Assembly (NCBI GenBank): GCA_018653085.1 | Contig: JABIAY010000053.1 | Location: forward strand, 64,561 to 128,560 | Length of the DNA: 64,000 bases | Direction: 5' to 3' | From: Nitrospina sp. | GTDB lineage: Bacteria; Nitrospinota; Nitrospinia; Nitrospinales; VA-1 | Shown here: one piece after another, positions 13,940 through 63,420 of the stretch | Position numbering within the stretch: position 1 is the stretch's first letter | Layout: every line of letters begins with the position of its first letter | Notes under the pieces: model-generated | What the model was told of the DNA's origin: nothing | The model's database searches: none | Seen by the model: only the letters and a program-made list of their open reading frames with translations | Program-made: the position numbers and the translations under genes

Positions 13940-14024
13940 GACCGAACCCGCATTGCTCATCGGGTTTCTGCAATTGTTTAGCAAAACCGACACGCCTTCT
14001 GTAATCTTCTATTAGCCCATCATC

Positions 14025-14825
14025 ATGCATACCACCAGGATAGGCCTCATTGCCGGAGCGGGAGAAGTTCCTGTATATTTTGCGCGAAAAGCCAGCCAGC
14101 TTGGGATAAAACTTGTCAGCATTGGTTTCTCAAAGGAAATCCAAAATAGTCTGGCACCGTTTTCGGAAGAGTGCTACTCAATTGGAGTCGGCCAGCCGGG
14201 TAAAATCTTCAAGACGCTACACCAGAACAGTGTGAAGGACTTATTGATTCTGGGCAAGGTTGATAAAAGCATCATTTTTAAACTGCAGAAGTTCGATTTT
14301 AAAGCCCTCCAGTTTTTCAAAAACATCGCCACGCACGAAGACAAGGTTTTACTGCTGGGAGTGATTGCTGAGCTCGAAAAAGAAGGTTTCAAAGTTTTAA
14401 GCCAAAAGGAATTTCTGTCGGATATTTTTCCTCAAAAAGGAAACCTAACCCGCCGGGAACCCACAAAACAGGAGCTGGAAGATATTGAATTTGGACTGCC
14501 CATTGCCCGCAAACTGGCGGACATGGAAATTGGCCAGACGCTGGTAGTAAAAAACAAAACAGTGGTAGCCGTTGAAGCTTTGGAGGGAACGGACCGGGCG
14601 ATTCAAAGGGGATGTGATTTGGCCCAGGGAAAGTGTGTGGTGATCAAAGTCAGCAGGACCAATCAGGATTACCGCTACGATAGCCCGGGAATTGGACCGC
14701 AAACGATCAGTATGCTGGCACAGGGCGGAGTTCTGGCATTGGAGGCAGAGAGGGTCATGGTGGTGGAACAGGAAAAAGTTCTCGACCTGGCCAATGATGC
14801 CAAAATTGCTGTGATCTGTGTCTAG
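14025..14825 (+). CDS. lpxI: UDP-2,3-diacylglucosamine pyrophosphatase LpxI (DUF1009 family)
   Basis: 266 aa with LIAGAGEVP and EALEGTDRAIQRG motifs. Sits between lpxA and lpxB, the usual LpxI context. Confidence 0.8.
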   Translation: MHTTRIGLIAGAGEVPVYFARKASQLGIKLVSIGFSKEIQNSLAPFSEECYSIGVGQPGKIFKTLHQNSVKDLLILGKVDKSIIFKLQKFDFKALQFFKNIATHEDKVLLLGVIAELEKEGFKVLSQKEFLSDIFPQKGNLTRREPTKQELEDIEFGLPIARKLADMEIGQTLVVKNKTVVAVEALEGTDRAIQRGCDLAQGKCVVIKVSRTNQDYRYDSPGIGPQTISMLAQGGVLALEAERVMVVEQEKVLDLANDAKIAVICV

Positions 14826-15057
14826 CCACTAGGCGTGGGGCCAGTGTGCAATAACTATTGCTGGCGAGCAACAGGTCAACTCGGTTTAAAAAGTAATTGC
14901 CATGTTCCCTCCCACGGGAGTGGGCTAGGCGTGGGGCCAGCACTGCATTGCCCGAGGAGCAGAGTAGCCCTCAAGCGCAATACTAATAATTTCTCCCCTT
15001 AAGAAGGAGAAGCTTCAACGGACCCCTCTTTTACAAAGAGGGGCTGGGGTGATTTAC
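14822..15057. repeat. Intergenic repeat mosaic R1 (head + A unit, head + B unit, inverted family-3 hairpin)
   Basis: CTAGCCACTAGGCGTGGGGCCAG-TGTGCAATAACTATTGCTGGCGAGCAAC..CTCGG at 14822-14891. CTAGGCGTGGGGCCAGCACTGCATTGCCCG..TCAAGCGCAATACT at 14925-14990. CCCCTCTTTTACAAAGAGGGGCTGGGGTGATTTAC at 15023-15057. All modules recur elsewhere in the window. Confidence 0.9.
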
Positions 15058-15114
15058 AACCTCTCGTGCAATATACGGGCGAGCCGTTCTGGCAATGAAC
15101 AGGGCTTACTGTAA

Positions 15115-16287: not shown

Positions 16288-16912
16288 TTACGTAATCCCA
16301 TACCTTCTTTTTGCAGTGGTTTATCTCTGGTGCCTGACCCTGCGCTCAAAAAACCTGAATGAAGAAGAAGAGAATCATTTTAAGAATCTTACCGGACCCT
16401 ATATTCTCACTTTGTGGCATGGAAGAATCTTTTACCTGTTTTATTATCTTCGCCGACATCCGGAGTACTTCCTGCTGATCAGCCCGAGTGCAGACGGTGA
16501 TCTTCTGGCCCGGCTTGCACGGTTGATGGGTTATTCCGTGATACGTGGGTCCACTTATAAAAAAGCTGTTTCCGCAGCCCGGTCCCTGATTAAAGTTTTG
16601 CGCAAGAATCAGAAAATCATTATCATTGCCGATGGTTCCCGCGGACCGAGATGTGTGGCTCAGCCGGGGTCCGTACAACTGGCAGGGATAACCGGAGCGC
16701 CCATTTTTCCTATGACCTTCGGAGCCCAAAATAAAGTGGTCTTAAACAGCTGGGACCGATTTGTCCTCCCCCTGCCTTTTACCCGTTGCACTCTCAACTT
16801 TTCGTCACCCATATCTCTCCCGCCAAAATCGTCTGAACAAACCATAGAGGAAAAGCGACTGGAGCTGGAAACTGCCCTCAATCAAATAAACAAAGCGAGT
16901 GATGAAGGCTAA
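16262..16912 (+). CDS. DUF374-family protein (lysophospholipid acyltransferase-like), lipid A cluster associated
   Basis: 216 aa. N-terminal TM segment and the conserved WHGR / ADG.RGP pattern (LTLWHGRIF, IIADGSRGPR). Overlaps the lpxB end; ATG 16268 is an alternative start. Confidence 0.65.
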   Translation: MLMKKLLFNYVIPYLLFAVVYLWCLTLRSKNLNEEEENHFKNLTGPYILTLWHGRIFYLFYYLRRHPEYFLLISPSADGDLLARLARLMGYSVIRGSTYKKAVSAARSLIKVLRKNQKIIIIADGSRGPRCVAQPGSVQLAGITGAPIFPMTFGAQNKVVLNSWDRFVLPLPFTRCTLNFSSPISLPPKSSEQTIEEKRLELETALNQINKASDEG

Positions 16913-17214: not shown

Positions 17215-17565
<351 letters not shown>

Positions 17566-19212: not shown

Positions 19213-19284
19213 GTGCTAAATTAGACAGGCCGCTAGGCGTGGGGCCAAAGCGCACAAGGATTGAGTCCACAAAAGACATTTTTT

Positions 19285-22200: not shown

Positions 22201-22461
22201 CAGGACAGTTACTTTTTCCTGAGAAATCTGGAGTGCGCCTTGCGGATCATTCGCCAGACCCCTACCAACACTCTTCCCAAAGACAATAAGGAGTTGGCAC
22301 CTTTGGCGCGGCTACTCGGATACGAAGGGGAGGACGCTGGAACCCTGGCGGGTTCCCTGCTCACCGATTATGACCGCCATACCCAACGGGTGCGAAAACA
22401 TTATCGCAAAACCATCGGCAATCTCCTCCGCTCCGGCCAAGCGGCCGGCGGCAACGTGTAA
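19285..22461 (+). CDS. glnE: Bifunctional glutamine synthetase adenylyltransferase / adenylyl-removing enzyme
   Basis: Two nucleotidyltransferase halves ([22 protein letters not shown] and [22 protein letters not shown]). ORF track starts at TTG 19261; ATG 19285 ([10 protein letters not shown]) is preferred. The last codons and the TAA stop lie inside a repeat unit. Confidence 0.9.
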   Translation: [1058 protein letters not shown]

Positions 22462-22545
22462 TAACTTTTTTAGCCGAGATGAGCTGTTGTTAGCAATAAA
22501 AAGTTATTGCAAGCTGGGTCCAGCGTCACGCTGGCGCCTAGCGGT
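22428..22545. repeat. Repeat locus R3 between convergent glnE and cimA
   Basis: Hairpin CCGGCC aagc GGCCGG (22433-22448) + GTGTAATAACTTTT, facing an inverted A unit TAGCCGAG..TTAGCAATAAAAAGTTATTGCA + CCAGCGTCACGCTGG (22520-22534) + CGCCTAG. Both flanking stop codons lie in the repeat. Confidence 0.85.
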
Positions 22546-26657: not shown

Positions 26658-26734
26658 CCACTAGACGCCGGGCACCGCCCGGAGGAAATGGACAATGACT
26701 CTAGCTGGCGAGCAACTGTGTTCTCGGCTTGCGA
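26658..26734 (+). repeat. Repeat locus R4 (A unit with variant hairpin)
   Basis: CCACTAGACG + CCGGGC acc GCCCGG (26668-26682) + ..CAATGACTCTAGCTGGCGAGCAACTGTGTTCTCGGCTTGCGA. Confidence 0.8.
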
Positions 26735-26992
26735 TATTCTTTCTTGCTATCTGCCTCCCCTGTTTTAAAAAGTTCGGCTGGCAAATATTGCAGGATCCGA
26801 CATTGATTTTTCGGTTTTTAAGGCCGGGGTGAAGTCGAGTTTTATTTTTAAAATCAGACTGTTATGGACGCAAAAAGGCTTTTATGATACTGTTTCACGA
26901 TGTGGGATAAGGCGACTTTGCCGATTTCCTAATGAAAAATTTTAGTTTTACTGAATGCTGGACCACCTGGTCGGGGAGAAGAAGGAGAGCTT

Positions 26993-27880
26993 ATGTATGA
27001 AGTCAAAGAGATTTGCAGAAACGGCGAATCTCTACCCCTCACTACTACTGATGGATCTCTAAGGATTGTATTTATTGGAACAGGCTCTGCATTTGCCAAG
27101 CGCAGGCGCCAGTCCAATATATTGGTCATTCAGGGAAACCATCATGTCTTGATAGATTGTGGTACCCAGGGGCCTTTAGCGCTCAACGATTTGGGATTGA
27201 GTGTTTTGGATGTGCGTTGCTACTTACCCACCCACAGCCATGCGGACCATATTGGCGGGTTGGAGGAAGTTGCCCTGATGAATCGGTACACTCCCAACAT
27301 TTCTACGCCTGATATGATTATTTTGCGGGACTATCAGGATATTCTCTGGAGCAAGAGTCTAGCCGGTGGTTGCGAATATTGTGAAGCAAATCAGGGTCGG
27401 CCTCTGCAGTTGACCGATTTTTTTAACATTCTTCGTCCTCAGAATATTGAAATTGAGGGAAGAAAGTTTTGGGCCTACAAACACGGACCCATTGAGCTTG
27501 TCATCATGCGAACGCGGCATTTTCCTGATACTGCCATCAGCGTGGATGAGTCGCAGTGGTGCTCGGGAGTGTTCATCAACCGTAAAGTCTGGATTTCCGG
27601 GGATACTATGTTCGATGCGGACTACCCTATCCGTTTTGCCAAGTTGGCGGAAGTCATGTTTCATGACACGCAATTATTTTTCGGCGGTGTCCATGCTTCT
27701 TATCAGGAACTGATGACATTGCCCGAGGATGTCCGGAAAAAAATGCTTCTTTACCATTACGGAGATAACTGGGATAAGCCGGAAACCTGGGCCACCGGGT
27801 CGGATAAATATACCGGCGATCCGGTTAAAGACGGATTTTTGGGTTGGACTGAACAACGTACCGCTTACGATTTTTACTGA
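26993..27880 (+). CDS. Metallo-beta-lactamase-fold hydrolase
   Basis: 295 aa with the HxHxDH motif (THSHADHIGG) and downstream His/Asp ligands. Confidence 0.8.
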   Translation: MYEVKEICRNGESLPLTTTDGSLRIVFIGTGSAFAKRRRQSNILVIQGNHHVLIDCGTQGPLALNDLGLSVLDVRCYLPTHSHADHIGGLEEVALMNRYTPNISTPDMIILRDYQDILWSKSLAGGCEYCEANQGRPLQLTDFFNILRPQNIEIEGRKFWAYKHGPIELVIMRTRHFPDTAISVDESQWCSGVFINRKVWISGDTMFDADYPIRFAKLAEVMFHDTQLFFGGVHASYQELMTLPEDVRKKMLLYHYGDNWDKPETWATGSDKYTGDPVKDGFLGWTEQRTAYDFY

Positions 27881-29170: not shown

Positions 29171-29222
29171 GGACGGCATTTCCAAACCCCTTGTCAGGGG
29201 AGAATAAGCCAAGGGCTTTTTC

Positions 29223-29286
29223 AGCCGAGACAACTTTTTGCTCGCCAGAGAAGGTTATTGCATACTGCCCCTCCGGCCAGGAGGGG
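29223..29286 (-). repeat. Repeat unit (inverted A unit) between the DUF898 and M48 genes
   Basis: The reverse complement reads CCCCTCC tggcc GGAGGGG CAGTATGCAATAACCTTCTCTGGCGAGCAAAAAGTTGTCTCGGCT. On the + strand its GGAGGGG arm contains the Shine-Dalgarno sequence of the M48 gene. Confidence 0.8.
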
Positions 29287-29291
29287 GTGCT

Positions 29292-30437
29292 ATGACTGCT
29301 CGAAAACTTCAATTTTCCGGTATTTTTTTTGATGGTAGAAGTTCCCAAAAACATCATGTCGATGTGGAACTCACTCCCCAGGAAATAATTCTCAAAGAGC
29401 CCGGCAATGAGCCGATCCGTTGGGCCTATCCCCACCTTCGTTGGGCCGCAGAAACCAGCCCCTTCCATATTGAACACCCTATTGCCGATAAAAATGGCGA
29501 GCACCTGGAAACTCTGGTTGTGGAGGACCGCGATTTTTATGCAAGTGTTTTAAAGATTGCGCCGGAAAGTTTTTCTGCTACCGCAAAGGGACCCAGTTTT
29601 AACTGGAAACTTTATTCTGCGGGGATGCTGGTTTTAGTTTTTTTTGCGTATGTATTTATTAAAACCGTTCCTTCGTTTCTGGCTGATCAGATGGTCGATA
29701 AAATTCCCGTTGAATGGGAAGTGACGGTGGGCCAGTCCATATTAAAAATGCTTCCGGTAGCGCAGAAACCCGATCCAGAAGTCCGCAAGGTTTTGCAGGA
29801 CACGGTTGATTTGCTGGAACAATCGGTGAAAGGCGATCAGCCTTATGACTTAAAGGTCTATATATTGCCGGTAAAACAGGTCAACGCGCTGGCTTTACCA
29901 GGTGGGCCCATCGTAATCTTTGAAGGCCTGCTATCTAAGGCAGAGTCGCCAGAGGAATTGGCTGGCGTGATCGCCCACGAAATTCAGCATATACTGCTCA
30001 GGCATTCCACCCGGGGGATTCTCCGGAACATGGCGGAGAGTATGTTGGTGTCTATTTTTCTGGGGGATGTGAATTCTGTCATGGAAGGGGTTATCAATCT
30101 CGCGGGGGAACTTGAAACGCTGGGATTGAGTCGTGAAATGGAAACGGAAGCAGACCAAAAGGGGATGGAATTGATTCTTGCCGCCAATATCGACCCGCAT
30201 GGAATGATTCGAATTTTTGAAAAGCTCATACAGGAGGAGTCGCCACAAAAAGAACTTCCAGAAGAAAAACCTATTTCGGAGGATAACGATATGGAATTTT
30301 CCTTTTATTTTTCCACCCATCCCTCTGGTCGGAATCGGTTGGCTCAGCTTGAGAAACAAATGGAATCGCATGAAAACAGAATTTGGACACCTCTTTTCCC
30401 AGATTTGGATTGGAACGATATTAAATCCGTAAATTAA
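29292..30437 (+). CDS. M48-family zinc metallopeptidase, membrane anchored
   Basis: HEIQHILLRH (HExxH) and downstream EMETEADQKG. One TM segment (LYSAGMLVLVFFAYVFI). Start set at ATG 29292 (GGAGG 7 nt upstream) because the ORF-track extension 29238-29291 is repeat sequence. Confidence 0.8.
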   Translation: MTARKLQFSGIFFDGRSSQKHHVDVELTPQEIILKEPGNEPIRWAYPHLRWAAETSPFHIEHPIADKNGEHLETLVVEDRDFYASVLKIAPESFSATAKGPSFNWKLYSAGMLVLVFFAYVFIKTVPSFLADQMVDKIPVEWEVTVGQSILKMLPVAQKPDPEVRKVLQDTVDLLEQSVKGDQPYDLKVYILPVKQVNALALPGGPIVIFEGLLSKAESPEELAGVIAHEIQHILLRHSTRGILRNMAESMLVSIFLGDVNSVMEGVINLAGELETLGLSREMETEADQKGMELILAANIDPHGMIRIFEKLIQEESPQKELPEEKPISEDNDMEFSFYFSTHPSGRNRLAQLEKQMESHENRIWTPLFPDLDWNDIKSVN

Positions 30438-32413
30438 TGCCCACCTCTAATTTTTCCACAACCCATGAGCGTGTTTTCTGGTTCTGGGCTTCCTTTGTCC
30501 TTGGTGCTTTTGCTTTGCTTAGGTTGCCCGGATTAGGAGTGCCGCTGGCTTCGGATGAGCTGGCCACGGTTTCACTTTGGGCGCAAATGCCTACCCTGAA
30601 AATTTTTTCCAATTATCAATACCCCAATAATCATATTTTCCTGACCCTCGTTCTCAGTTTTCTACTAAAAACATTTGGTCTGAAAGAATGGTTGTTAAGG
30701 ATGCCCTTATTGTTTTCCGGACTAGTCAGCATTTTTCTGGCCTACAAGCTGGGTAGAAGAATTTCTGGAAATATTGCTGTGGGGTTGTCTACAGCTTTTT
30801 TGATGACCCTCAGCGAAAAACATATTTATTTTTCCACCAACGCGCGGGGATATATCGTCATCATGATGCTGGCTCTAATGGCGGTGACTGTTGTGCTGGA
30901 TCGACTTGAAGCCCAGCCGTTAAAATTGCCCAAGCTCTCTAACGGATTCAACGGAACCTTGGCATTTCTCGGATGGGCGGCTATCTGGATTCTAGGAACC
31001 TGGACGATCCCTACCTTCTTGTTTTTTGTGGTTTCGGTTGCTCTATTCTTGGCGGGAATTTTTCTGGCAGGAAATCACGTATTAAAAAAAGAGTATTTGG
31101 TTGTACCCCTGCTTTCGACCGTGGTGGGGGGGCTCGTATTTTATTTGCAATACTACGTGTTGATTGATTCGGCAATGTTGACTTCGGCAACTGCGGCGGT
31201 GGTAACTGCAACAGGGGCAAAAACATCCCTGGTACAATTTTTTCCTGAACTCCTGACGGAATGGACAAGCCCCTTTGAACCGGCAGGATTTCTATTTTTC
31301 CTGTTTGCCCTGATGGGATTGGTTCGGTTGTTCGGGCAAAACCGGGTCATCGGTTTTCTGATGGCCTGCGTTTGGCTGGGTCCTATTGTCATTGGAGTCC
31401 TGGGCTTTTTGTTGGGAAGGCTTCCCACCGTTCCGTATCCTCGAACCTTTTTTTATCTACAACCCTTTTTTCTGATATTGGGCGTGATGGGTGCCCGGGA
31501 AACCGGGTTATGGGTTTTAACATTGCTAAATAAAAATCCCGGCTCTAATGAGAAAAGCCTGCGAATTATGACAGGAGTTTTGGCGGGGGTTCTTTTTCTG
31601 ATTGCGGGGTTAAATTTTTTCCAGCAAGTTTATCCCCAGCGTTTGTCGAGAGAACCTTTGAACAGGGTTCGTGATTTTGTGCGAGAATTGAATCCGAATG
31701 ACCTGCTTCTGGTTTCTCATAAAATGCATGTGGAGTTCTACCTGTATGGTGCCCGTGATATGCGAAGTCGGATAGAAAATATTCTGCATGAGGGGAAATT
31801 GGGAAACATCTATTTTCTGGAGCGTGAGAAAAATGAGAAAAGGTTTCTAAGCTTTCACGCCTTGACCGGGAATGCGGGAAAAGAGGGGCCGACTCTCCCT
31901 GAAGAGGCTGTGGAGGTGGTTGAACGATTTGACCCTTTTGTGTTCTATCGATTAAAGCAAGGCTGGGTACAGCCTCTGCCGGGATGGGAGGAAGCAGGCT
32001 CTTCTAAAACAGGGGCCTTTAGATGGGAAAAGGGGCCTCCGGGAATCCGCTCCTTGATTCGGTTTGAAGATTCCTTTACGGTAGCCAGGGAGAACAGGGA
32101 GCAGTTATTTCATAGAGCTTCGGGTTTGACCTTGAACTTGATGGAAGTTGCAGGCAGCGAAAAAAATTTTTCAGCAGTCTTGTTGGGCGGGCAGAGGAAA
32201 GAAGGTAATATTGTTTTCGATCCCAGTTGGCACCCCAACGCATGGATTCTGGACCACCCCTACGGGAGCGATATTTTTAACCGCCGTTGGAATCCGGCTA
32301 TTTTTATCTCTCAGGGTGTGGGACGTTTGTCAATATTGGATGTAAAGTTTTCCCGGCGTTTGGGTCATGGGGCGGTAAGGAATTTTTTAAGTTATCGGAT
32401 TGATAAACCTTAG
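30437..32413 (+). CDS. GT-C fold glycosyltransferase (ArnT/PMT, GT39/GT83-like) with a C-terminal soluble domain
   Basis: 658 aa. About 11-13 hydrophobic segments in the first ~400 aa and an Asp-Glu pair in the first loop (LASDELATVSLW). The start overlaps the M48 stop (TAATG). Confidence 0.6.
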   Translation: MPTSNFSTTHERVFWFWASFVLGAFALLRLPGLGVPLASDELATVSLWAQMPTLKIFSNYQYPNNHIFLTLVLSFLLKTFGLKEWLLRMPLLFSGLVSIFLAYKLGRRISGNIAVGLSTAFLMTLSEKHIYFSTNARGYIVIMMLALMAVTVVLDRLEAQPLKLPKLSNGFNGTLAFLGWAAIWILGTWTIPTFLFFVVSVALFLAGIFLAGNHVLKKEYLVVPLLSTVVGGLVFYLQYYVLIDSAMLTSATAAVVTATGAKTSLVQFFPELLTEWTSPFEPAGFLFFLFALMGLVRLFGQNRVIGFLMACVWLGPIVIGVLGFLLGRLPTVPYPRTFFYLQPFFLILGVMGARETGLWVLTLLNKNPGSNEKSLRIMTGVLAGVLFLIAGLNFFQQVYPQRLSREPLNRVRDFVRELNPNDLLLVSHKMHVEFYLYGARDMRSRIENILHEGKLGNIYFLEREKNEKRFLSFHALTGNAGKEGPTLPEEAVEVVERFDPFVFYRLKQGWVQPLPGWEEAGSSKTGAFRWEKGPPGIRSLIRFEDSFTVARENREQLFHRASGLTLNLMEVAGSEKNFSAVLLGGQRKEGNIVFDPSWHPNAWILDHPYGSDIFNRRWNPAIFISQGVGRLSILDVKFSRRLGHGAVRNFLSYRIDKP

Positions 32414-38604: not shown

Positions 38605-38718
38605 ACTTTATTTACAAACCTTATCGGTCATCGACAGAGATATCATCAGGGGCAAAAATACAGGTCAATTTTAATACAGAATGGAGCTGGTATCTAGCTT
38701 GGATATGTGGGAGAAAAC

Positions 38719-38786
38719 GCAACCCCCTCAATCCCCCTTATCAGGGGGACGATCAATTCCCCCCTGTTAAGGGGGCTAGGGGGGTT
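38719..38786. repeat. Family-2 G/C-run hairpin doublet (inverted pair)
   Basis: GCAACCCCCTCAATCCCCCTTATCAGGGGGA (38719-38749) faces TTCCCCCCTGTTAAGGGGGCTAGGGGGGTT (38757-38786). Single arms recur at 44342, 46455, 46641 and 53172. Confidence 0.85.
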
Positions 38787-41064: not shown

Positions 41065-41231
41065 AGTAAAACGCGCCTGTTTAAAGGGGGGGGTCTTCTG
41101 CCCCTTGTGCTGAATAATTTGAAAAAGATAGAGTCCCGGAAAGGGATAGGCTACGCGCTACCATACCATAATGGATGGATGAGATGCTTCAACAAGCTCT
41201 TGCCCTATTCCCGCCGGGCGTGGCCCGGAGA

Positions 41232-44294: not shown

Positions 44295-44375
44295 CTTCTC
44301 TGGCTAGCAAACGATTACTCGGCTTAAAATGGGCTTGCTAAATTCCCCCCTGATAAGGGGGGCTAGGGGGGTTGC
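44258..44375 (+). repeat. Repeat locus R6 (A unit overlapping the shc 3' end, plus a family-2 hairpin)
   Basis: CCAGCGTGACGCTGG (44264-44278) ACTCAACGAGCAATAGCTTCTCTGGCTAGCAAACGATTACTCGGCTTAAAA, then ATTCCCCCCTGATAAGGGGGGCTAGGGGGGTTGC (44342-44375). Confidence 0.9.
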
Positions 44376-44409
44376 TTGTATGTGAACTCATCGAAGCATC
44401 TCGCCGAGC

Positions 44410-44982
44410 CTAATGCTGTCGAAGCATTTCTACTGCGAATTTGGTTCGGGTCAAATGTTCTGTGGCGGATGCGATCACTTCGCCGCTCATGACATCGGTC
44501 ATGGTGAGGTGAACATCAATATTAGTCCCAAGATCGGTGATACGACCTGTGATGATGGCCTGGGAGTTGAGTGCCTTGCCCATTAACCGGATCTCTTCCC
44601 TGTTGTATAGGTAAGAGGGTTTCAGGTTTAACTGCTCCAATACTGCGTTGACTTCTCCTTTTTGTGCTATCCGAAACGTCTTGTCCTGGAAAAAAAACTT
44701 TTTCGTAATCGCTTCCACGACTCTGGACGCAAAATACTCCCCAAGAATGGGAGCCCTGTTTTCTTCATCGACCAGGTCCATGACTGTGACCTTATTGATT
44801 TCATATTCTTCAACGTCTGCAGTCAGTTTTTGCACTAGCTCGGTAGATTTATCTTTGTAGTAACTGGAGTCCGTCTGAGTTCGGAACAATTTGCTCCAGA
44901 AGTTTGAAGGACCCAACTTCACTTCACAGCCGGAAACAAAGAGGGAAATCATGAGCAAATAAAGGAGTTTTCGCGTGTCCAT
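44410..44982 (-). CDS. Hypothetical lipoprotein
   Basis: 190 aa. Lipobox LFVSGC after a basic/hydrophobic N-terminus. The body pattern loosely recalls small periplasmic lipoproteins of the FlgO/CsgG/LpoB kind, but no motif is diagnostic. A perfect sigma-54 promoter lies upstream. Confidence 0.6.
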   Translation of the reverse strand: MDTRKLLYLLMISLFVSGCEVKLGPSNFWSKLFRTQTDSSYYKDKSTELVQKLTADVEEYEINKVTVMDLVDEENRAPILGEYFASRVVEAITKKFFFQDKTFRIAQKGEVNAVLEQLNLKPSYLYNREEIRLMGKALNSQAIITGRITDLGTNIDVHLTMTDVMSGEVIASATEHLTRTKFAVEMLRQH

Positions 44983-45218: not shown

Positions 45219-45440
45219 CCCCCCCCACTCGGCGTGGGGCCAGCGTGTAATAACTTTTGCTGGCTAGCTACCGTTTCTCTCGGCTTAACGAGTGTTTGCT
45301 CACTGCCACCGGCGGCTCGCCGGCGCCGAGTGGCCCATTTCCGTGGGAGGGAACTGGGCAAGAGCTTGATTGTGCCGAGTTAACCTATTGTTCGCCGAAC
45401 CAAGCGACGGCACACTGGCCCCACGCCGAGTGGGGGGGGG
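45219..45440. mobile_element. Inverted-head repeat element (MITE/REPIN-like, 222 bp)
   Basis: Left end CCCCCCCCACTCGGCGTGGGGCCAGCGTG. The reverse complement of the right end is CCCCCCCCCACTCGGCGTGGGGCCAGTGTG (about 29 nt, one mismatch plus a C-run length difference). The interior is an A unit plus, inverted, a ~135-bp composite also present at 48945-49085. Confidence 0.7.
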
Positions 45441-45509: not shown

Positions 45510-46367
45510 GTGACAGTTTTGAAGGCAATACAATGTTTGGGATGGATGGTTTTTTTGTTGGTCGGGCCTCTGGTTTCAGGTTGTAACGGCGGTGATGGGG
45601 AAGATGTTGTCGAAAAGTCTTCCTTCCAGATGCCGGTAAAAGAAAATACCTGGGTGCGTAAGGAAACTGTGCGTAAAACCAAAGATGACTTCTTTGCCTC
45701 TGCCGGTAAAAAGAGCGTTGAAGTTCCCATCGACTCTGCTCTGGCGGAAAAATTGAAAAAGGCCTCTTCCCTTTCCATCAACACGCAACAAGAATGCTTG
45801 CAACAGGCCACCGCCCTCGATAAAAAACGGACTGAAGTGCAGAAGCGTGGAGGACTCTGGCATGCCTATGAGCGGGTGCCGACAGCCAAACCTTATTCGG
45901 ACTATGGTATGCAACTCGACAGCCAGACCAACCGACTGGTGTTTTCCCTCAAGTATCTTTGCCAGAATGCCCAGGGACTCCAGTTAACCGGGTGGGGTGC
46001 GGAGATGGCGCGAATGCGTAAAAATATGGGTAAAGAAAATTTCAGAACTCATTTTCTGGATTTAGGTGAGGTACCGGCTGATGTGGATAACTGGGTGCGT
46101 TTCGCCGAATTTGCTATTCAAGGTGAGAACCGCAAAATCCCTTATTCCAAAATCAGTGAGTCCCTTGGCAAAGCCCAATCTCTTATGGGTCTTTATGATG
46201 ACCTGTCGCAAAGAAAAGTAGATGATGCTACTTTGCAAACTTTCCTCGCAGAAGGGGCCACACTCCTGAGTGTTATCAACGAGAGTTTTAAGTCCGACCC
46301 GCAACTGATCCTCGCCCTGCAAGATGAAAATATACTTCCCTTTGAGGACATCAAAGGCGAAATGTAG
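45510..46367 (+). CDS. Hypothetical lipoprotein
   Basis: 285 aa. Lipobox LVSGC, no recognisable domain. GTG start at 45510 is uncertain. The TAG stop is the TAG of a truncated repeat head. Confidence 0.55.
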   Translation: MTVLKAIQCLGWMVFLLVGPLVSGCNGGDGEDVVEKSSFQMPVKENTWVRKETVRKTKDDFFASAGKKSVEVPIDSALAEKLKKASSLSINTQQECLQQATALDKKRTEVQKRGGLWHAYERVPTAKPYSDYGMQLDSQTNRLVFSLKYLCQNAQGLQLTGWGAEMARMRKNMGKENFRTHFLDLGEVPADVDNWVRFAEFAIQGENRKIPYSKISESLGKAQSLMGLYDDLSQRKVDDATLQTFLAEGATLLSVINESFKSDPQLILALQDENILPFEDIKGEM

Positions 46368-46748
46368 CGGCCAGTGTGCAATGACGTTGATAGGCTGACA
46401 ATAAGTTATCTCGGCTCAATTGAGCCCTCAAGCGCAACCGCCGAAAAGTAAAATATTCCCCCCTGATAAGGGGGGCTAGGGGGTAGTTTTGCTCCCTCTT
46501 GATCTTCCCCTTGTGGTAAATCACCCCAGCCCTCTTTGAGAAAGAGGGGGTTTTAAACCCCCTAGATCCTTAGCCCTCTTTGAGAAAGAGGGGGTTTTAA
46601 ACCCCCTAGATCCTTCGGCAGGCTCAGGATGACAGCTAAAGCAACCCCCTCAATCCCCCTTATAAGTGGGAAGCTCAATCGTTATAGTATTGCGCTTGAT
46701 GGTACTGCTTGCTTGACGGGCAATGCAGTACTGGCCCTACGCCTAGTA
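46365..46748. repeat. Composite repeat element R8 (heads facing out; families 2 and 3 inside)
   Basis: TAGCGGCCAGTGTGCAATGAC..CTCGGCTC..TCAAGCGCAA, then family 2 (46455-46484), family 3 with a tandem duplication, inverted family 2 (46641-46670), and an inverted B unit ending ..GGCCCTACGCCTAGTAG (46748). The block order matches 53085-53520. Confidence 0.85.
46528..46615 (+). repeat. Perfect tandem duplication, 2 x 44 bp
   Basis: AGCCCTCTTTGAGAAAGAGGGGGTTTTAAACCCCCTAGATCCTT at 46528-46571, repeated exactly at 46572-46615. Each copy holds two hairpins (CCCTCTTT/AAAGAGGG and GGGGG/CCCCC). Confidence 0.95.
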
Positions 46749-46891
46749 GAAAAGACGATCATCCCTCAGTGAGTTAAAAATTGTTGGAGAAGAACCAATT
46801 TTTAACTCATGTATCTGAAGAAGATCGTCTTTTTGTTTTTTTATATTATTTGATGAAACCCCCGGAGCAAAGCTCCGAGGAGTTCATTCGA

Positions 46892-48337: not shown

Positions 48338-48745
<408 letters not shown>

Positions 48746-48944: not shown

Positions 48945-49243
48945 CCCACTAGGCGTGGGGCCAGCGTGCCGTCGCTTTATTTGGCGAGCAGAGAGTTTGT
49001 CTCGGCGCAATCAAGCTCTTGCCCAGTTGCCCCTGCGGCTAGCAGCCACTAGGCGCCGGCGAGCCGCCGGTGGCTACTGCAATGGCGTTTACTAATTAGC
49101 AACAGTTTATCTCGGCACGATTAAATCCTCGCCCACTGAGTCCAGCGTGACGCTGGTGCCCAGTCGCAACCCCTGCCAAGGGGCACTAGGCGTGGGATTA
49201 GCGGAAGCGGGGTTATTGCTCACTGAGTCCAGCGTCACGCTGG
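48945..49243. repeat. Repeat locus R9 (four head/hairpin units in tandem and inverted order)
   Basis: CCCACTAGGCGTGGGGCCAGCGTG..GGCGAGCA..CTCGGCGC (48945-), CCACTAGGCG CCGGCG agc CGCCGG..TGCAATGGC..CTCGGCAC (49046-), CCCACTGAGT CCAGCGTGACGCTGG (49142-49156), and an inverted unit CACTAGGCGTGGG..TTATTGCTCACTGAGT CCAGCGTCACGCTGG (49229-49243) that overlaps the nirC 3' end. Confidence 0.9.
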
Positions 49244-50040
49244 TCTTGCAAGGTGGCTCCTGCTTCCATGCGCAAGCTGGGGGTGGCCAGCCAATACACG
49301 AGGCCCACAAAAGCACCGCCGCCGACCAGGTTTCCAAGGGTGACAAAGATCTGGTTATGGATGAACCCGGCTATCGAAACTTCTGCTCCATGCGGCAGAA
49401 GCATTGCCATGCTCAACAAACTTTGGTTGGCGATGCTATGCTCGAATCCGCTACCGATGAAAGCAAACAGGCACCAGAAAATCATAATCAGTTTGGCGGT
49501 TTCGCTTTTTGTCCGTAAAGAAATCCACACCGCCAGGCAAACCAGCCAATTGCAGAGTATTCCCCGCAGAAAAGCTTCTTTCGCGCCAAGTCCCATTTTC
49601 CCCGCCGCGACTTTGAGTATCAAAGCTTGCGAGGCTTCGGTCAAACTGCCGCCTTCGACCACCATCCAACCGAGAAACGCCGAGCCAATGAAATTACCGA
49701 CGAAGCACATAACGAACAACATGACAATTGAGCCCACACCCACTCGGTTAGCCAACCGGCTAACGGCAAAAATCATATTGTTGCCGGTAAACAGTTCTGA
49801 TCCGGCAAAGATGACCAGGCTCAGGGCAATACCGAAAGAGGCACCCATGATCAGTTTCAAATAGGCTCCGCCACCTGCGCTTGCGATGGGGCCGCCAATC
49901 GAAAAAATCAGGACGATGCCAAATCCCAGATAGATTCCGGCTAACGCGGACAGGATGAGATAGCCCAGAGGAGACTTTTTCATGTACTCGATCTTCTTTT
50001 CAGAAGCATCGGCTATCTTTTGCATTTCGCTTTTAAACAT
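49213..50040 (-). CDS. nirC: Formate/nitrite transporter family channel (NirC/FocA-like)
   Basis: 275 aa FNT-family pattern with six TM segments, immediately downstream of nirD. The C-terminal QRDAGLSEQ* is repeat-encoded. Confidence 0.85.
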   Translation of the reverse strand: MFKSEMQKIADASEKKIEYMKKSPLGYLILSALAGIYLGFGIVLIFSIGGPIASAGGGAYLKLIMGASFGIALSLVIFAGSELFTGNNMIFAVSRLANRVGVGSIVMLFVMCFVGNFIGSAFLGWMVVEGGSLTEASQALILKVAAGKMGLGAKEAFLRGILCNWLVCLAVWISLRTKSETAKLIMIFWCLFAFIGSGFEHSIANQSLLSMAMLLPHGAEVSIAGFIHNQIFVTLGNLVGGGAFVGLVYWLATPSLRMEAGATLQDQRDAGLSEQ

Positions 50041-53084: not shown

Positions 53085-53582
53085 CTCCTAGGCGCTACTA
53101 GCCGTAGGGGCACAACTAGCAATAGCTTTCTTTGGCGGGCAGGGAGGTGTCCCGGCTTGAGGAGGTTCTACTATTCCCCCCTGATAAGGGGGACTAGGGG
53201 GGGTGCATTATTTGTGGTTACAGCCCTCTGGGTTGCCACGCCGCCTTCGGCGGCTCGCAATGACGGGCAAAGCAAACCCCTGAATGTAAATCACCCCGGC
53301 CCTCTTTAATAAAGAGGGGGCAAGCCAACCCTCCCCAACCCCTCAGACTATCGGGCTTGAGTCCCTATGAAGGGAGGGGATATAACAAACCACGCCACAC
53401 ATTGTTTTGTCGGGAAGAAATATTAAAGTGTTGCGCTTGAGTGTTTAGTCCGCTTTACGGGCAATGCAGTACTGGCCCCACGCCGAGTGGGCCGAGCTAA
53501 CCTGTTGTTGGCTGATTGATGCTATGCAGTTGGCGGTCGCGTAAGCGTCTCCGCCCCATTGCCTCCCACGCTAGTGGGCTAG
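53085..53582. repeat. Composite repeat element R10 (about 500 bp, largest mosaic)
   Basis: CTCCTAGGCG..AGCAATAGC..CCCGGCTT; family 2 (53172-53205); hairpin GCCGC cttcg GCGGC + TCGCAATGAC (53240-); family 3 (53286-53320); inverted B unit ..TTGCGCTTGA..GGGCAATGCAGTACTGGCCCCACGCCGAGTGGG; and an inverted A-like unit ending CCCACGCTAGTGGGCTAG, which contains the lon stop codon. Confidence 0.88.
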
Positions 53583-59418: not shown

Positions 59419-59585
59419 CGGCCAGCGTGGTGCTGGGCCCAATTAGCCCTTGCTGTTTGCTACTCCCGTTGCGGAGAACCTCCGCTGGTAACTTGCAATA
59501 TCTTTATTTTGCGGGCAATCGGTCTCTCGGCCCAATCAGCCCTTGCTGTTTGCTACTCCCGTAAGGGAGGTTTTCCCCCTCCACG
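59419..59585. repeat. Repeat locus R11 between tig and tRNA-Leu
   Basis: CCAGC gtggt GCTGG (59422-59436) followed by a 34-nt direct repeat GGCCCAATYAGCCCTTGCTGTTTGCTACTCCCGT at 59436-59469 and 59529-59562 (one mismatch). These are degenerate A units. Confidence 0.8.
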
Positions 59586-59590: not shown

Positions 59591-59675
59591 TGGTGCGGAT
59601 GAGAGGACTTGAACCTCCACTCCGTAAGGAACATGATCCTAAATCATGCGCGTCTGCCAATTCCGCCACATCCGC
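59591..59675 (-). tRNA. tRNA-Leu (anticodon TAG)
   Basis: The minus strand reads GCGGATGTGGCGGAATTGGCAGACGCGCATGATTTAGGATCATGTTCCTTACGGAGTGGAGGTTCAAGTCCTCTCATCCGCACCA. It has a 7-bp acceptor stem, anticodon loop TTTAGGA, a long variable arm, T-loop GGTTCAAGTCC and an encoded CCA. Confidence 0.92.
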
Positions 59676-59809
59676 ATTATATTTCAAGGGTTTATACGAT
59701 AGTTTCTGACCCTGGTTCTTTGGCTGTTTCAAAGGGGTATGAGCCTGCAGACAACCTGTCTAGTCAATATATCATTTAATAGAAAAGGATTCCGCAAATA
59801 TCTGGCCTC

Positions 59810-60325
59810 TCAAGGATTTTCATCCTTCTTTTTCATTTCCTCATGGAGCTGTGAAATTTCTTCCTGAAGATTTTCAAAATCGACTTCTCCTCTTACGCAA
59901 TAATTTTTGAGATAGGAATACATAAGGAGGACACAAGCCCAGGCATCAAAAACTTCCCCACTTTTTTCACATCGTTTTTCCAAAGCGGAAAAACTGCCTT
60001 CAATTTGTTCCAGGATCTTACAGAAATTGACGACCTCGTTGTTCTCATCCAAATCTTTATGAACAGCAAATGCGCCAGACTCTTCGTTAACTTGTGATTC
60101 TTTGAGCGCCTTGTACTGATCTTCTATCTGCTTTAAATCGATGCTGGAATTTTCACAATAAAGACGCAGATTGCTGAAGGCGATGAACAGGCACTCGTAC
60201 CCACCGATTTGGCGAGGCTCTTCATTTTCATCAGAAACCAGTTCGGCAATATCATCTTCGACTGCATCGAACATTTCGAAAAATGCATCGAGCTGGTTTT
60301 CGTTTTGGGATTCGTCGTGTGCCAT
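59810..60325 (-). CDS. Hypothetical acidic protein
   Basis: 171 aa, Glu/Asp-rich, predicted helical, no recognisable motif. Its start overlaps the stop of the upstream hexapeptide-repeat gene by 1 nt. Confidence 0.55.
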   Translation of the reverse strand: MAHDESQNENQLDAFFEMFDAVEDDIAELVSDENEEPRQIGGYECLFIAFSNLRLYCENSSIDLKQIEDQYKALKESQVNEESGAFAVHKDLDENNEVVNFCKILEQIEGSFSALEKRCEKSGEVFDAWACVLLMYSYLKNYCVRGEVDFENLQEEISQLHEEMKKKDENP

Positions 60326-61122
60326 TATTTTCGTATGGACCGGGGTTTGCGATCTTTCGGGACGAGCAGGGTTCCGGCAGGGTAGTAGCCTTTGGGGATG
60401 GTCAGGCCGGGGTAGACCCAGACATCTTTTCCGATCAGCGTACCGGGGCAGACGATGGCATTACAACCCAGTTCAACATTATCGCCGATTACCGCACCCA
60501 GTTTTTCCATTCCGGTATCCAGAACTTCGGAGTCGAGAGGGATATGGATAGGGTTGATATAGCCCTTACGTTTTTCATCGGCACTTCTCAGTTGCAGGTT
60601 TGCCAGCTTCGACCCTGCTCCCAGGTTGACATGGCTCCCTATAATGCTGTCACCGATATAATTGAAATGGCCCGCTTCGGTATGATCCATGAGAATGCTG
60701 TTTTTCAATTCGGTGGCATGGCCGATCACGCTGTGGTTTCCGATCAGGGCGTTCCCGCGGATATAGGCTCCCTGCCGGATATCGCAGTCCTCTCCAATCA
60801 TGGCAGGACCCTTTATTATGGCCGAAGGCTCCAATTGCGTTCCTTTGCCAATGAAGATATCCAGTTCCTTCAAGTAAATCGGTTCTGCCAGATCGACCCA
60901 GTCCTCGACGTAAAATCCCTGTTCGCCTCGGTGGTAACTGGCGGAATCCAGAGTGGTCCTTATCCCGGCCAAATGGGAGGCATAAGACCCGCCAGAGACT
61001 TTTTTGCGTATCAACTGCTTCACCCGGGATTCCAGTGTTTTTAACGGGTCCCATACGTGTTCACAATCGGCAAAAATATCCGGTTCGCTCAGGTCTGAAA
61101 AAAATAGATTTAAATCTTTCAT
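60325..61122 (-). CDS. Hexapeptide-repeat (left-handed beta-helix) protein resembling the GlmU acetyltransferase domain, with no nucleotidyltransferase domain
   Basis: About 265 aa from MKDLNLFF (ATG 61122, GGAGG 8 nt upstream). ATELKNSILMDHTEAGHFNYIGDSIIGSHVNLGAGSKLAN parallels the GlmU C-terminal pattern (E.K.S..G.GSKA.HL.YIGD..IG..VNIGAGT). The ORF-track extension to 61164 is repeat sequence. Confidence 0.65.
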   Translation of the reverse strand: MKDLNLFFSDLSEPDIFADCEHVWDPLKTLESRVKQLIRKKVSGGSYASHLAGIRTTLDSASYHRGEQGFYVEDWVDLAEPIYLKELDIFIGKGTQLEPSAIIKGPAMIGEDCDIRQGAYIRGNALIGNHSVIGHATELKNSILMDHTEAGHFNYIGDSIIGSHVNLGAGSKLANLQLRSADEKRKGYINPIHIPLDSEVLDTGMEKLGAVIGDNVELGCNAIVCPGTLIGKDVWVYPGLTIPKGYYPAGTLLVPKDRKPRSIRK

Positions 61123-61126
61123 ACGG

Positions 61127-61244
61127 AGTACCTCCGCCGGCGAACCGCCGGTGGCAGATAGCAAAGACCCGTCAAGCCGAGGGGACTCTTTGCTCGCCAG
61201 CGAACGCTATTGCCAGTTGGGTCCAGCGTCACGCTGGCGGTTAG
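61127..61244 (-). repeat. Repeat locus R12 (inverted A unit plus CCGGCG hairpin)
   Basis: The reverse complement reads CTAACCG CCAGCGTGACGCTGG ACCCAACTGGCAATAGCGTTCGCTGGCGAGCAAAGAGTCCCCTCGGCTTGAC ... CCACCGGCGGTTCGCCGGCGG. It contains the TAA stop of the mutase gene and abuts the SD of the next gene. Confidence 0.88.
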
Positions 61245-63289
61245 TGGTTGATGTACCATTTGCCGAGAGGGGTCAGGCTGTTTCCCTCGCGACTCAATTG
61301 AATAAGGTTCTGCTTTTTCATTTCGTTAATCAGCCTGGATTTGTACTGGTTTTTTATTTCCAGCTCTTCATCGGTGACTGGCCTCGCAGCGATTTGGCTG
61401 AGAGCATCCAGTTCTACTTTATAAAAAGAGTTGTCACGGTCTTTGAGCAGAGAGGTCAAAAGTTTAATAGCCTCCAGCCCGATTTTTTTCAGTTTCCCGG
61501 CGTCCGATTTTCTTCCACGCAGGTTAACGCTGATTTTGTTTTCGGTGCCGGAATTTCTTACAAAGATACCGGCTTCCCCCCCTGATAGGGAAATATACAA
61601 CATATCCGGGTCGTCAGGGAAGTTTCGCGTTCGGGTGGAGTACCCGCTTTGCTTCGCGGTTTGAAATAGTAGCCGCTTAACTTTTTTCCATACTTGAGAA
61701 TCCCGGCAGAATAGTTCCTGGCGAATATAATACGTGTAAAGAGTGGATTTGAATCCGGGTAAAAAGGGCTGGCGAACAGACTGGATATACCTTTTAGGCG
61801 ACAGGGTTGCGGCCAGATGCTCGGTGGCGGCAAAGGTATTGAGAGCACTTTTTAATCCATTGCCGGAGTATATTTGTACTTCTTTTTTGTCGGGCAGAGT
61901 TAAATAGCCGGTGGTGATGTTGTGCCCCGTTTCCTCACTGCCTACCGCCAGAACATGGGAATTATTTTTTGTTGCGGCCGGATTCTCTAGAATAGATGCT
62001 TCGAGATTTTTAAGGTCCGCCACTCGTGTCACGCCTTTTTTTTGTAGCGATGCGATTTTATTTTTAAGTTTTTTCTGCGTTGTGAGCATCGATAGTTTTT
62101 GTTGCAACAGCGCGAGGCGGATTTTAAGCAGGATCCATTTATCACCAACAGCTGTGAGCAGAGGGGTCAGCCCCATTAACTCGGCAGAGGCAGAGGCGTT
62201 GAGGTCGCTTTCCACAGTATTGATATAAAGCGATCCGCCGTATTTTTGGGGAAAGCGGGATACCAAATGTCGTGCCTGCAGGATGGCTGTCTCGTCTCCG
62301 CTTAAGACCCACAGGGTATCTTGAAACGGATCGTATTCCAGGCGGAAGAAACGATCGCCATCGGCATCGAAAATGGCTCCGGCAATTCTTTTTTTTCCGC
62401 ACTCTGCGGATTTCTGGTTTGCCCGGCCCAACTGAAAAAGTTTGACGATGGCTTTGTGGAAGCGGAAAGGTCCGGCGGGTTGCAGGATCATGTCTGCGGT
62501 GATGCGGGGGCACCCTTCCAGGTCAGCGACTCCAGAGCGCAGGTTTACCGCGCCATTTTTTCCTGCGTTGACTTCGACTACTTTGCCGACTCCGGCGTCC
62601 TTAAAAATTTGCGCGGCGATTCCTGTGAACGCCCCGAAAGCGGGGTCAACAACCAGAATGAGGGCTTTTAAAGTGTCGGGAGAATTGATCCAGGAGTTTT
62701 CAGGCCGCAGGGAAAAATGCTGAAACAGTGCCAACGCTTTTTGTCGGCAATCGGTTCTTCCTCCTTTCAGGGGAAGTTTTTTAATGGCGTTTTGTTTGAG
62801 CAGGCTTTGGGTCAGGTCGATATCGTCAGAAGGTAACGGCTTCATGCCATGAAAAGGCAGGAAAAGTTTTATTCCGTTTTGATCCTTAGGGTTGTGGGAT
62901 GCGGTGACCATGATGCCACCATCGTCGCCATTATGTAGCATAAATAGCGGCACCAGGGGAGTCGGCACTACACCCAGAACCCTGGCCTCACCCCCCGCTT
63001 TGCGGACACCCCGAACTACCGCTTCCGTAAAGGTGCCGGAAGGATCTCTGGGGTCCCAGCCGATGACGAAGGTTCTTTTTTTGTGTGCGGACGATTGATT
63101 TTTGACGTAGCAATAGACGTAAAGCTCCATAAACTCTTCGGTGATCCAGCCCTTTGCAAGAAAAACTTGTAGTGGAGTCGACCCTCTGCATTCTGAGTCT
63201 TTTGCCGATCTGATTTCCCGGCGAATCCCATCGGTACCCTGCAAGCGGTCGGGCACAATGGGTTGCATTGGGATCGTTTTAGGTTTCAT
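61241..63289 (-). CDS. Alpha-D-phosphohexomutase superfamily protein (GlmM/AGM1-like) with insertions and a C-terminal extension
   Basis: 682 aa. Phosphoserine loop GIMVTASHNPKDQNGIKL, metal loop FDADGDRF, sugar loop GSEETGHN, phosphate loop RNSGTENKISV. An extra ~90 aa tail follows domain IV. Confidence 0.8.
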   Translation of the reverse strand: MKPKTIPMQPIVPDRLQGTDGIRREIRSAKDSECRGSTPLQVFLAKGWITEEFMELYVYCYVKNQSSAHKKRTFVIGWDPRDPSGTFTEAVVRGVRKAGGEARVLGVVPTPLVPLFMLHNGDDGGIMVTASHNPKDQNGIKLFLPFHGMKPLPSDDIDLTQSLLKQNAIKKLPLKGGRTDCRQKALALFQHFSLRPENSWINSPDTLKALILVVDPAFGAFTGIAAQIFKDAGVGKVVEVNAGKNGAVNLRSGVADLEGCPRITADMILQPAGPFRFHKAIVKLFQLGRANQKSAECGKKRIAGAIFDADGDRFFRLEYDPFQDTLWVLSGDETAILQARHLVSRFPQKYGGSLYINTVESDLNASASAELMGLTPLLTAVGDKWILLKIRLALLQQKLSMLTTQKKLKNKIASLQKKGVTRVADLKNLEASILENPAATKNNSHVLAVGSEETGHNITTGYLTLPDKKEVQIYSGNGLKSALNTFAATEHLAATLSPKRYIQSVRQPFLPGFKSTLYTYYIRQELFCRDSQVWKKVKRLLFQTAKQSGYSTRTRNFPDDPDMLYISLSGGEAGIFVRNSGTENKISVNLRGRKSDAGKLKKIGLEAIKLLTSLLKDRDNSFYKVELDALSQIAARPVTDEELEIKNQYKSRLINEMKKQNLIQLSREGNSLTPLGKWYINH

Positions 63290-63360
63290 GTGAAACTGGG
63301 TGCTCGAAAGGGTGAGTGGGTTTCAAAGGTTTTTTCGTAGCCGACAGATTGTAACATAGG

Positions 63361-63420
63361 GGCCACCGGTGAGCCACCGCCAGCATGATGCTGGACCCAA
63401 CTGGCAATGGTTTGTTGGGT
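63361..63420 (+). repeat. Repeat locus R13 (A unit with compensated hairpin)
   Basis: GGCCACCGGTGAGCCACCG CCAGCATGATGCTGG (63380-63394) ACCCAACTGGCAATGGTTTGTTGGGTTGAG. The stem differs from CCAGCGT/ACGCTGG by a paired G:C to A:T change. Confidence 0.8.

Follow-up and report, generated by a model that had tools for sequence, protein, structure and literature searches.

Stop-codon-abutting, hairpin-bounded intergenic repeats in Nitrospina and its relatives

In this work, a stretch of 64,000 nucleotides from a marine, nitrite-oxidising Nitrospina sp. (GenBank assembly GCA_018653085.1, contig JABIAY010000053.1, positions 64,561 to 128,560, hereafter the window) was found to carry a family of short repeats that are bounded by hairpins and lie in the gaps between core genes. 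The family is real and apparently undescribed, and a literature search on Nitrospina repeats returned no description of any. Its strongest regularity, which had been missed in an earlier reading of the sequence, is that the conserved hairpin at the start of the units, the head, lies against stop codons of genes on the same strand. This abutment and the conservation of the head across a whole bacterial family are its most distinctive features. On balance, we favour the view that the repeats are an old, vertically inherited, non-autonomous and hairpin-bounded family resembling repetitive extragenic palindromic sequences (REPs), REP doublets forming hairpins (REPINs) and bacterial interspersed mosaic elements (BIMEs), which would be slowly maintained by an enzyme, remodelled in place and retained at mRNA 3' ends. 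Marine nitrite oxidation is mainly the work of Nitrospina, which are known almost exclusively through metagenome bins. Repeats that occupy a quarter or more of the intergenic DNA and rewrite gene 3' ends affect assembly, binning, gene calling and strain typing. Moreover, the abutment is a sharp quantitative regularity, and a master hairpin shared by a whole family makes it testable, in a new lineage outside Proteobacteria, whether a domesticated transposase or a host function maintains REPs.

Eight positions of the window matched the head motif ACTMGGCGTGGGGCCAG with at most two mismatches, compared with 0.00 in 100 shuffles. The repeat search gave at least 60 families of direct repeats as well as 108 inverted pairs; the long repeats among them lie at the loci that the earlier, sequence-only reading had listed. 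Profile hidden Markov models (HMMs), built from aligned repeat copies and run with nhmmer, detected 15 units of a type named A (E<1e-4) and 3 of a type named B between 14.8 and 63.5 kb. These A- and B-units are confined to gene gaps or to the last codons of genes (18 units, with 8 copies of the head H1, in 64 kb). The multi-copy, modular, GC-rich palindromic family proposed earlier for the intergenic DNA of this core-gene region was confirmed by motif, repeat and profile searches. Its recurrence at 14 loci also held, the profiles covering 13 of them; 19231-19247 is a solo head and 38719-38786 an inverted pair of the hairpin module F2. Measured conservatively with BLAST, the repeats amount to 1859 nt, of which 1578 nt belong to the 6305 nt of intergenic DNA and 281 nt extend over gene 3' ends; the previous tally was about 2.4 kb. 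The statement that they fill most intergenic gaps was too strong, since 13 of the 28 gaps of at least 60 nt contain them. Two weak copies had been suggested in addition: that at 41190-41228 is a real, truncated remnant of an A-unit tail, while that at 13945-13995 is matched by none of the profiles. The family extends beyond the window, as H1 was located in about 20 Nitrospinaceae/Nitrospinota assemblies among the matches listed by a genome scan. It had also been noted that no transposase, integrase or cas gene lies in the window, and Pfam searches of about 50 open reading frames (ORFs) agreed, identifying core genes only, among them metH, clpB, bamA, lpx genes, glnA/E, leuA, argJ/C, rpsI/rplM, shc, amt, glnB, nirBD, lon, clpXP and tig.

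By aligning 107 head copies, a sharp 5' boundary was obtained, without conservation upstream of CCA. The prefix CTAGCC that had been assigned to the head is not conserved, and conservation begins abruptly at CCA. The near-invariant head H1 reads (C)CCAC-TMGGC-GTGG(G) followed by GCCAG, and it is replaced in some units by H2, the palindrome CCAGCGT-S-ACGCTGG. Few sequence types follow the head, the A-unit and the B-unit among them. The A-unit is about 100 nt long and consists of the head hairpin, a body of about 60 nt and a tail hairpin. Its body is GCAATARC..CTGGCGAGCAAAGAGTTRTCTCGGCTTAAYRAG..TTGCC..TTGCC, where the middle segment can also be given as CTGGCGAGCAAAGAGTTRTCTCGGCTTAA, and its main tail classes are CCCCT-GCYA-AGGGG, CCCAC-GNNA-GTGGG, CTGC-GGCKA-GCAG, CCGGCG-GYT-CGCCGG and the exact reverse complement of H1. 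The tails are often inverted and H1-like, some variants having the loop GGCTA or GCTA. A unit thus amounts to two small palindromes in inverted orientation with a spacer between them. The B-unit is composed of H1, CACTGCATTGCCCGTAAAGC..CTCAAGCGCAATACT and an F2-like hairpin of G/C runs. The modules H, A, B, F2 and F3, which had been thought to be freely shuffled, are therefore pieces of one fixed plan of head hairpin, body and tail hairpin with a length of about 100 nt. The apparent shuffling arises mostly because whole units invert, duplicate in tandem and swap hairpins.

The terminal hairpins are constrained as structures, and the body is conserved as primary sequence. The rare variants of the H1 stem are compensatory (CTGC/GCAG, CCGC/GCGG, CTAC/GTAG). 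For the tail helix, 40 tails were aligned on the upstream TTGCC anchor with no selection for pairing; 73% of the cells were paired vs 63.8% in shuffles, and 26 cells had changed on both sides vs 9.4. The observed pairing was reached by 0 of 500 shuffles, and slid controls were lower. By mutual information, Watson-Crick covariation was absent from the body and present in the tail only, and the RNAalifold consensus of the whole unit retained only the H1 stem and a 3-bp helix. The pairing of GCCAG with CTGGC is 82-100% complementary but near-invariant, and thus uninformative on pairing. The minimum free energy (MFE) of whole units compared with shuffles gave z from 0 to -4, so the units are not consistently more stable. 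Furthermore, the H1 19-mer behaves as a conserved "master sequence" amid mutated copies. In 190 kb that had not been selected for H1, 10, 6, 9, 6 and 3 copies were found at zero to four mismatches, respectively, and shuffles yielded about 0.4 copies, in the four-mismatch class only.

The position of the heads was compared with random placement in the same gaps, using gaps bounded by two called genes and counting as abutment a first head base between -30 and +10 nt from the stop. In this comparison, 48 of 90 H1 heads abut a same-strand stop, compared with 8.8 +/- 2.7 at random (maximum 18 in 2000 trials). The stop is the TAG inside CTAGG in 16 cases and a codon such as TAA located 3 nt upstream of CCA in 17, while an ORF of the opposite strand ends at the head in 4 copies only. 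Of 97 H1 copies classed by gap, 34 lie in convergent gaps, which are over-represented, and 15 in divergent ones; the co-directional gaps hold 32 in sense and 16 in antisense orientation. H1 is nearly excluded from coding sequence save the last codons. In convergent gaps such as that between shc and the neighbouring gene p190, the unit reaches from one stop codon to the other. H2 and the start of the A body (44258-44294) encode the final 12 codons of shc together with its stop, and the terminal H2 region (49213-49245) supplies about 11-12 C-terminal codons and the stop codon of the gene for the formate/nitrite transporter. In the related locus L101, the orthologs of both genes end inside H1, so the C-termini differ between close relatives.

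With the head motif as query, species-representative genomes gave at least 96 matching stretches, and about 65 of those listed come from about 20 Nitrospina, Nitrospinaceae, Nitrospinales and Nitrospinota assemblies. The remaining listed matches are mostly single ones in genomes of high GC content, in line with the chance expectation for a 17-mer in 596 Gb. With the A-unit HMM, 130 copies were recovered, spread over 68 of the sources searched. Several of the loci show synteny with the window, with an identity of about 85%. One contig carrying Nitrospina units, L017 (PAWC01000016.1), is labelled Candidatus Neomarinimicrobiota SAT138. It is collinear with window positions 59632-63360 at 84% DNA identity, and a labelling or binning error of the contig, or of the entire bin, is probable. 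Contigs with an identical PII protein, including one of GCA_018647925.1, are 99.8% identical to the window without indels and are therefore uninformative on insertion polymorphism.

Turnover was followed in 25 orthologous loci around a conserved gene of 285 amino acids. The units change in place, through inversion, tandem duplication and the replacement of hairpins or body, much faster than the flanking genes. Each of the four gaps that bear repeats is occupied both in the window and in L101, whose flanks are about 95% identical, and the length and content of these gaps differ. Gaps a and d each contain a clearly homologous unit, with about 87-88% identity, that points the other way with respect to the flanks. 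Gap b has kept its terminal hairpins (37 of 38 positions in the P hairpin), and the body between them has the opposite orientation, with only about 70% identity. The gap between shc and p190 contains A-type units in either orientation in 15 lineages, in one to three tandem copies of 99 nt, and degenerate units in AT-rich lineages. L111 has three units of 99 nt in tandem, and L051 has tandem units of 98 nt. In other orthologous gaps, units had been replaced or had decayed to remnants. After the metH stop, bin SI036_bin78 (L028, 6190-6400) has a repeat array of about 210 nt, and the window (5775-5812) has only 22 nt ending in GGGAGTGG. GGGAGTGG is half of a tail hairpin, and the site looks as if it had lost an array by deletion and not as if it had always been empty.

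We hypothesize that a vertically inherited, trans-acting enzyme, which would read the H1 hairpin in single-stranded DNA, seeded the family and slowly maintains it, the obvious candidate being a HUH tyrosine transposase of the REP-associated tyrosine transposase (RAYT) or IS200-like type. Recombination or template switching between inverted hairpins could then remodel the units in place, and copies may persist because transcribed hairpins at mRNA 3' ends are harmless or useful, for example in protecting the 3' end or in acting on terminating ribosomes. Liang, Rudd and Deutscher are said to have found in 2015 that E. coli REPs within 15 nt of stop codons act on terminating ribosomes. Several observations weigh against this explanation. 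The hairpins bear, on either strand, neither of the tags GTAG and CGTC that define the two large REP super-families, the 5' flank of H1 being CCA and its 3' flank GGCCAG. The H1 stem, with only 4 to 6 bp, is also shorter than expected of a REP. Pfam searches of the ORFs in the window revealed no RAYT or IS200-like gene, and no RAYT was found in about 0.75 Mb of Nitrospina DNA, or about 1% of the genomes concerned, by tblastn with E. coli RayT and a scan for HUH/YxxNP motifs. All the matches in these searches were due to chance, those in L023 and L015 being unrelated ORFs. Next to H1, neither a target-site duplication nor a conserved target motif was present. The body is conserved as well, which pure hairpin recognition does not predict and which hints at a function of each copy. 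Finally, the identity of A bodies is 62.7% within a genome and 62.0% between genomes, with 89% for the best within-genome pair, so there has been no recent burst of copying. As the RAYT search covered about 1% of the genomes concerned, the family, which lacks the tags, is not filed here as a member of the RAYT-REP group.

A possible, though clearly less probable, explanation is that the units are functional cis elements of mRNA 3' ends and not selfish DNA, each copy being under purifying selection and spread by rare recombination alone. H1 and the body would then bind a host protein, or modulate translation termination, Rho-dependent termination or the stability of the 3' end. This explanation overlaps with the enzyme-maintained family that we favour and differs in what maintains the sequence. 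The excess of heads at same-strand stops agrees with it, as do the 2 to 1 ratio of sense to antisense copies in co-directional gaps (32 vs 16), the conservation of the body without covariation, as in a sequence-specific binding site, the equal divergence within and between genomes without young copies, and the finding that all examined orthologous gaps remain occupied despite rearrangement. On the other hand, one third of the copies are antisense or in divergent gaps, and about half of the window gaps are empty, including those after highly expressed genes. Orientation flips at the same site, the decay of units into remnants and the occurrence of AT-rich degenerate versions alone in some related lineages also argue against a function at each site, and the units neither resemble intrinsic terminators nor fold, as wholes, consistently better than shuffles. 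It seems rather unlikely that H1 and the A body form a cis-regulatory device common to the Nitrospinota lineage, with cassettes flipped by active, hairpin-specific recombination and not by classical transposition. A dedicated protein or the terminating ribosome would then read H1, whose loop often holds the stop (CCAC-TAG-GC-GTGG) or which starts 3 nt after it, and would set translation termination, the fate of the 3' end or operon polarity in hundreds of core genes.

Miniature inverted-repeat transposable elements (MITEs), derived from an insertion sequence (IS) with a DDE transposase, for example of the IS630 type, that recognises H1-containing terminal inverted repeats, are improbable. The 222-nt element at 45219-45440 does have inverted H1 termini, and H1-bearing repeats in delta-proteobacterial metagenome-assembled genomes (MAGs) flank or adjoin IS630-type DDE_3 transposases (L060, L001). 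However, neither TA nor another duplication is found at the H1 ends (T at -5 in 6 of 111 copies), no sampled Nitrospina locus, nor the window, has a DDE_3 homolog, and the ends of most units are unlike, a head facing a variable tail, and so are not true terminal inverted repeats. In the delta-proteobacterial MAGs, moreover, H1 lies within the element and not at its ends, and an unrelated ABM gene is present in the bracketed segment too. Least credible of all is that H1 serves as a DNA uptake or genome-wide signal, of the type of the DNA uptake sequence (DUS) of Neisseria or the uptake signal sequence (USS) of Pasteurellaceae, with the remainder of the unit as a passenger. The 19-mer is near-invariant throughout the family and occurs in another lineage too, and pairs of DUS sit downstream of genes. 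But its density is low, about 1 per 8 kb, it is essentially kept out of coding sequence except for the last codons, it always heads a longer conserved unit, and the compensatory stem changes indicate a hairpin and not a duplex word.

As to the delta-proteobacterial repeats themselves, soil MAGs labelled "uncultured delta proteobacterium" (L001, L005, L031, L055, L059, L060) have the exact H1 19-mer inside a different repeat of about 150 nt. In L060, an IS630-type DDE_3 transposase lies, together with an ABM-domain gene, between two inverted copies of this repeat (796-939 and 2542-2660), and in L001 a DDE_3 transposase (26% identical) lies 600 nt from the repeat copy. Similar repeats were absent from plasmid, phage and viral-contig collections. 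Against Rfam 15, only tRNA-Leu exceeded the gathering threshold in the window, and the sub-threshold matches were chance hits to eukaryotic or viral families. Several known types of element were considered and rejected. Terminator-like sites numbered 30 vs 26.5 expected, and among the repeats only the F2 copy at 46458-46475 (-) qualifies as an intrinsic terminator, the H1, H2 and tail hairpins having no T runs. A sigma-54 or sigma-70 promoter in the body had no convincing match by eye and no excess in a promoter scan, and the attC core sites of integrons (RYYYAAC, GTTRRRY) were unmatched, the flanking genes being core genes. BIME-1 is marked by a linker site for integration host factor (IHF) and BIME-2 by gyrase binding. 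An exact match to the IHF consensus, WATCAANNNNTTR, was found at a fixed position in 8 of 94 A units only and is retained as a weak lead.

Among known systems, the BIMEs of E. coli and the REPINs are the closest to the family in behaviour. Like the REPs (palindromic units, PU) and BIMEs of E. coli and Salmonella, which are mobilised by the RAYT RayT/YafM, it consists of small, imperfectly palindromic sequences that lie in the gaps between genes, both at 3' ends and between the genes of operons. It also shares with BIMEs the alternating orientation, the conserved linker motifs and the mosaic arrays of variable copy number (here 46365-46750, 48945-49245 and 53085-53582), as well as a turnover much faster than that of neighbouring genes; the same kind of dynamics was reported for BIMEs (Nunvar et al.). 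Unlike these E. coli and Salmonella elements, the Nitrospina units have no GTAG tag, their stem is only 4 to 6 bp, the linker of about 60 nt is their best-conserved long part, the exact IHF consensus is present in only 8 of 94 of them, and no RAYT was found for them in the small sample. In addition, the Nitrospina head is conserved across the whole family and not within a species group. Two further features are common to the REPINs of Pseudomonas, Neisseria and E. coli, which go with Group 2 or 3 RAYTs: an inverted pair of REP-like hairpins around a spacer, with a length of about 100 nt, which is seen in many Nitrospina units though with heterogeneous tails, and a master sequence with a cloud of mutants that persists vertically for long. 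REPIN-RAYT systems have been described in Proteobacteria only. In contrast to REPINs, a Nitrospina unit usually has two different hairpins, the head being invariant and the tail variable, its spacer is conserved in sequence and not in pairing, and the unit as a whole folds only inconsistently into a long hairpin. CGTC-tagged REPs, such as those of alpha-proteobacteria, dRS3 of Neisseria, and RPE-4 and RPE-6 of Rickettsia, are likewise abundant palindromic families for which no dedicated transposase gene was found. Their sequence is a different one, with the CGTC head that is missing here, and their stem and loop dimensions are also different (8-9 bp stems vs 4-6 bp).

The pneumococcal BOX element (boxA-boxB(n)-boxC), the Rhizobium-specific intergenic mosaic element (RIME) and the enterobacterial repetitive intergenic consensus (ERIC) have modules in fixed order with variable inner copies, are co-transcribed with their flanks and have an uncertain mobiliser. 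The Nitrospina repeats are similar in the fixed order of conserved modules and the variable copy number of the inner module, although the sequences are unrelated. To our knowledge, BOX, RIME and ERIC have not been reported to abut stop codons systematically or to span a family-level clade. Minute inversions associated with hairpins are said to have been described by Kelchner and Wendel in 1996 in non-coding chloroplast DNA. There, as in gaps a, b and d compared with L101, a segment between short inverted repeats flips repeatedly among close relatives and the flanks stay collinear. The chloroplast case involves the flipping of a single hairpin loop, whereas here whole cassettes of 100-300 nt, including the terminal hairpins, occur in both orientations.

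The individual copies in the window range from complete units to remnants. The stop of lpxI (TAG, 14823-14825) is followed directly by the H1 head of an A-unit with the tail TCCCAC-GGGA-GTGGG (14826-14925, +; nhmmer E=4.8e-25). Behind it, head to tail, lies a B-unit, H1 with CACTGCATTGCCCG...CTCAAGCGCAATACT (14922-15015, +; E=4.5e-23), and then an F3 hairpin module, CCCTCTTT-N4-AAAGAGGG plus GGGGTGATTTA (15022-15058, -; inverted repeats I13 and I18). The solo H1 head CCGCTAGGCGTGGGGCCAA was recovered from the glnA-glnE gap by motif, alignment and profile searches (19230-19248, +). The convergent glnE/leuA gap is spanned from stop to stop by an A-unit (22445-22542, -; E=6.5e-13) with the H2 head CCAGCGTSACGCTGG at 22518-22536. 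A degenerate A-unit (26658-26765, +; E=3.1e-10) lies in a divergent gap, and another A-unit, with the tail CCCCT-GACA-AGGGG, in the gap between the DUF898 and M48 peptidase genes (29187-29286, -; E=4.4e-16). The def-argJ gap holds two inverted F2 modules of G/C-run hairpins (38716-38786), in place of which the orthologous site of LS_NOB has an H1 element. The remnant at 41190-41228 (+), the truncated 3' end of an A body with a hairpin, was recognised from the sequence and adjoins the rpsI stop.

At the 3' end of shc, an A-unit with an H2 head and an F2-type tail occupies 44262-44377 (+; E=1.4e-11). The element at 45219-45440 is a long palindrome composed of two A-units with their heads outward (45225-45314, +, and 45327-45433, -; E=6.5e-23 and 3.6e-23; inverted repeat I4). 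The composite array at 46365-46750 comprises a head-truncated A-unit (46369-46428, +), F2 (46455-46483), F3 (46528-46615), a second F2 (46641-46670) and a B-unit (46649-46749, -). Its F3 part is a perfect tandem duplication of 44 nt (two copies of AGCCCTCTTTGAGAAAGAGGGGGTTTTAAACCCCCTAGATCCTT), which looks like the product of very recent slippage or unequal exchange. The array at 48945-49245 begins with an H1-headed A-unit (48946-49052, +), an H1 with a nested P hairpin (49045-49074) and a second A body (49078-49144), and continues with H2 (49140-49158), a T2 hairpin with a degenerate H1, and another H2 (49227-49245). In the array at 53085-53582, a degenerate A-unit (53095-53194, +), F2 (53173-53201), F3 (53285-53320) and a B-unit (53395-53490, -) are accompanied by a CCCAC-GCTA-GTGGG hairpin by the lon stop. 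The gap between tig and tRNA-Leu contains two headless 3' halves of the A body with CTCCC-GTAA-GGGAG tails (59433-59585, +; direct family D16; E=8.5e-11), which are 89% identical and 93 nt apart. Adjoining the stop of a phosphoglucomutase-like gene is an A-unit with an H2 head (61221-61239) and the P tail CCGGCG-GTT-CGCCGG (61135-61243, -; E=1.2e-13; MFE z=-4.1), and the last A-unit, with a diverged H2 head, lies in a divergent gap (63376-63461, -; E=2.5e-09; inverted repeat I12).

Some of the neighbouring genes were also noted. A second PII (glnB-like) gene is located just upstream of glnA (17227-17565, +), with 78% DNA identity over 349 nt to the amt-linked PII gene (48338-48676, -), and the minus-strand ORF of 169 aa that overlaps it has no Pfam match and is probably spurious. 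The metallo-beta-lactamase-fold protein encoded at 26993-27877 (+) scored 99 bits against PF23023 (anti-Pycsar Apyc1; cut-off 50) and is probably a host cyclic-nucleotide phosphodiesterase homolog. Three conserved ORFs had no Pfam match, at 30437-32410 (+, 658 aa), 44413-44982 (-, 190 aa) and 45510-46364 (+, 285 aa), and the genes of 190 and 285 aa are syntenic with shc in 25 of the 25 retrieved Nitrospinaceae loci.

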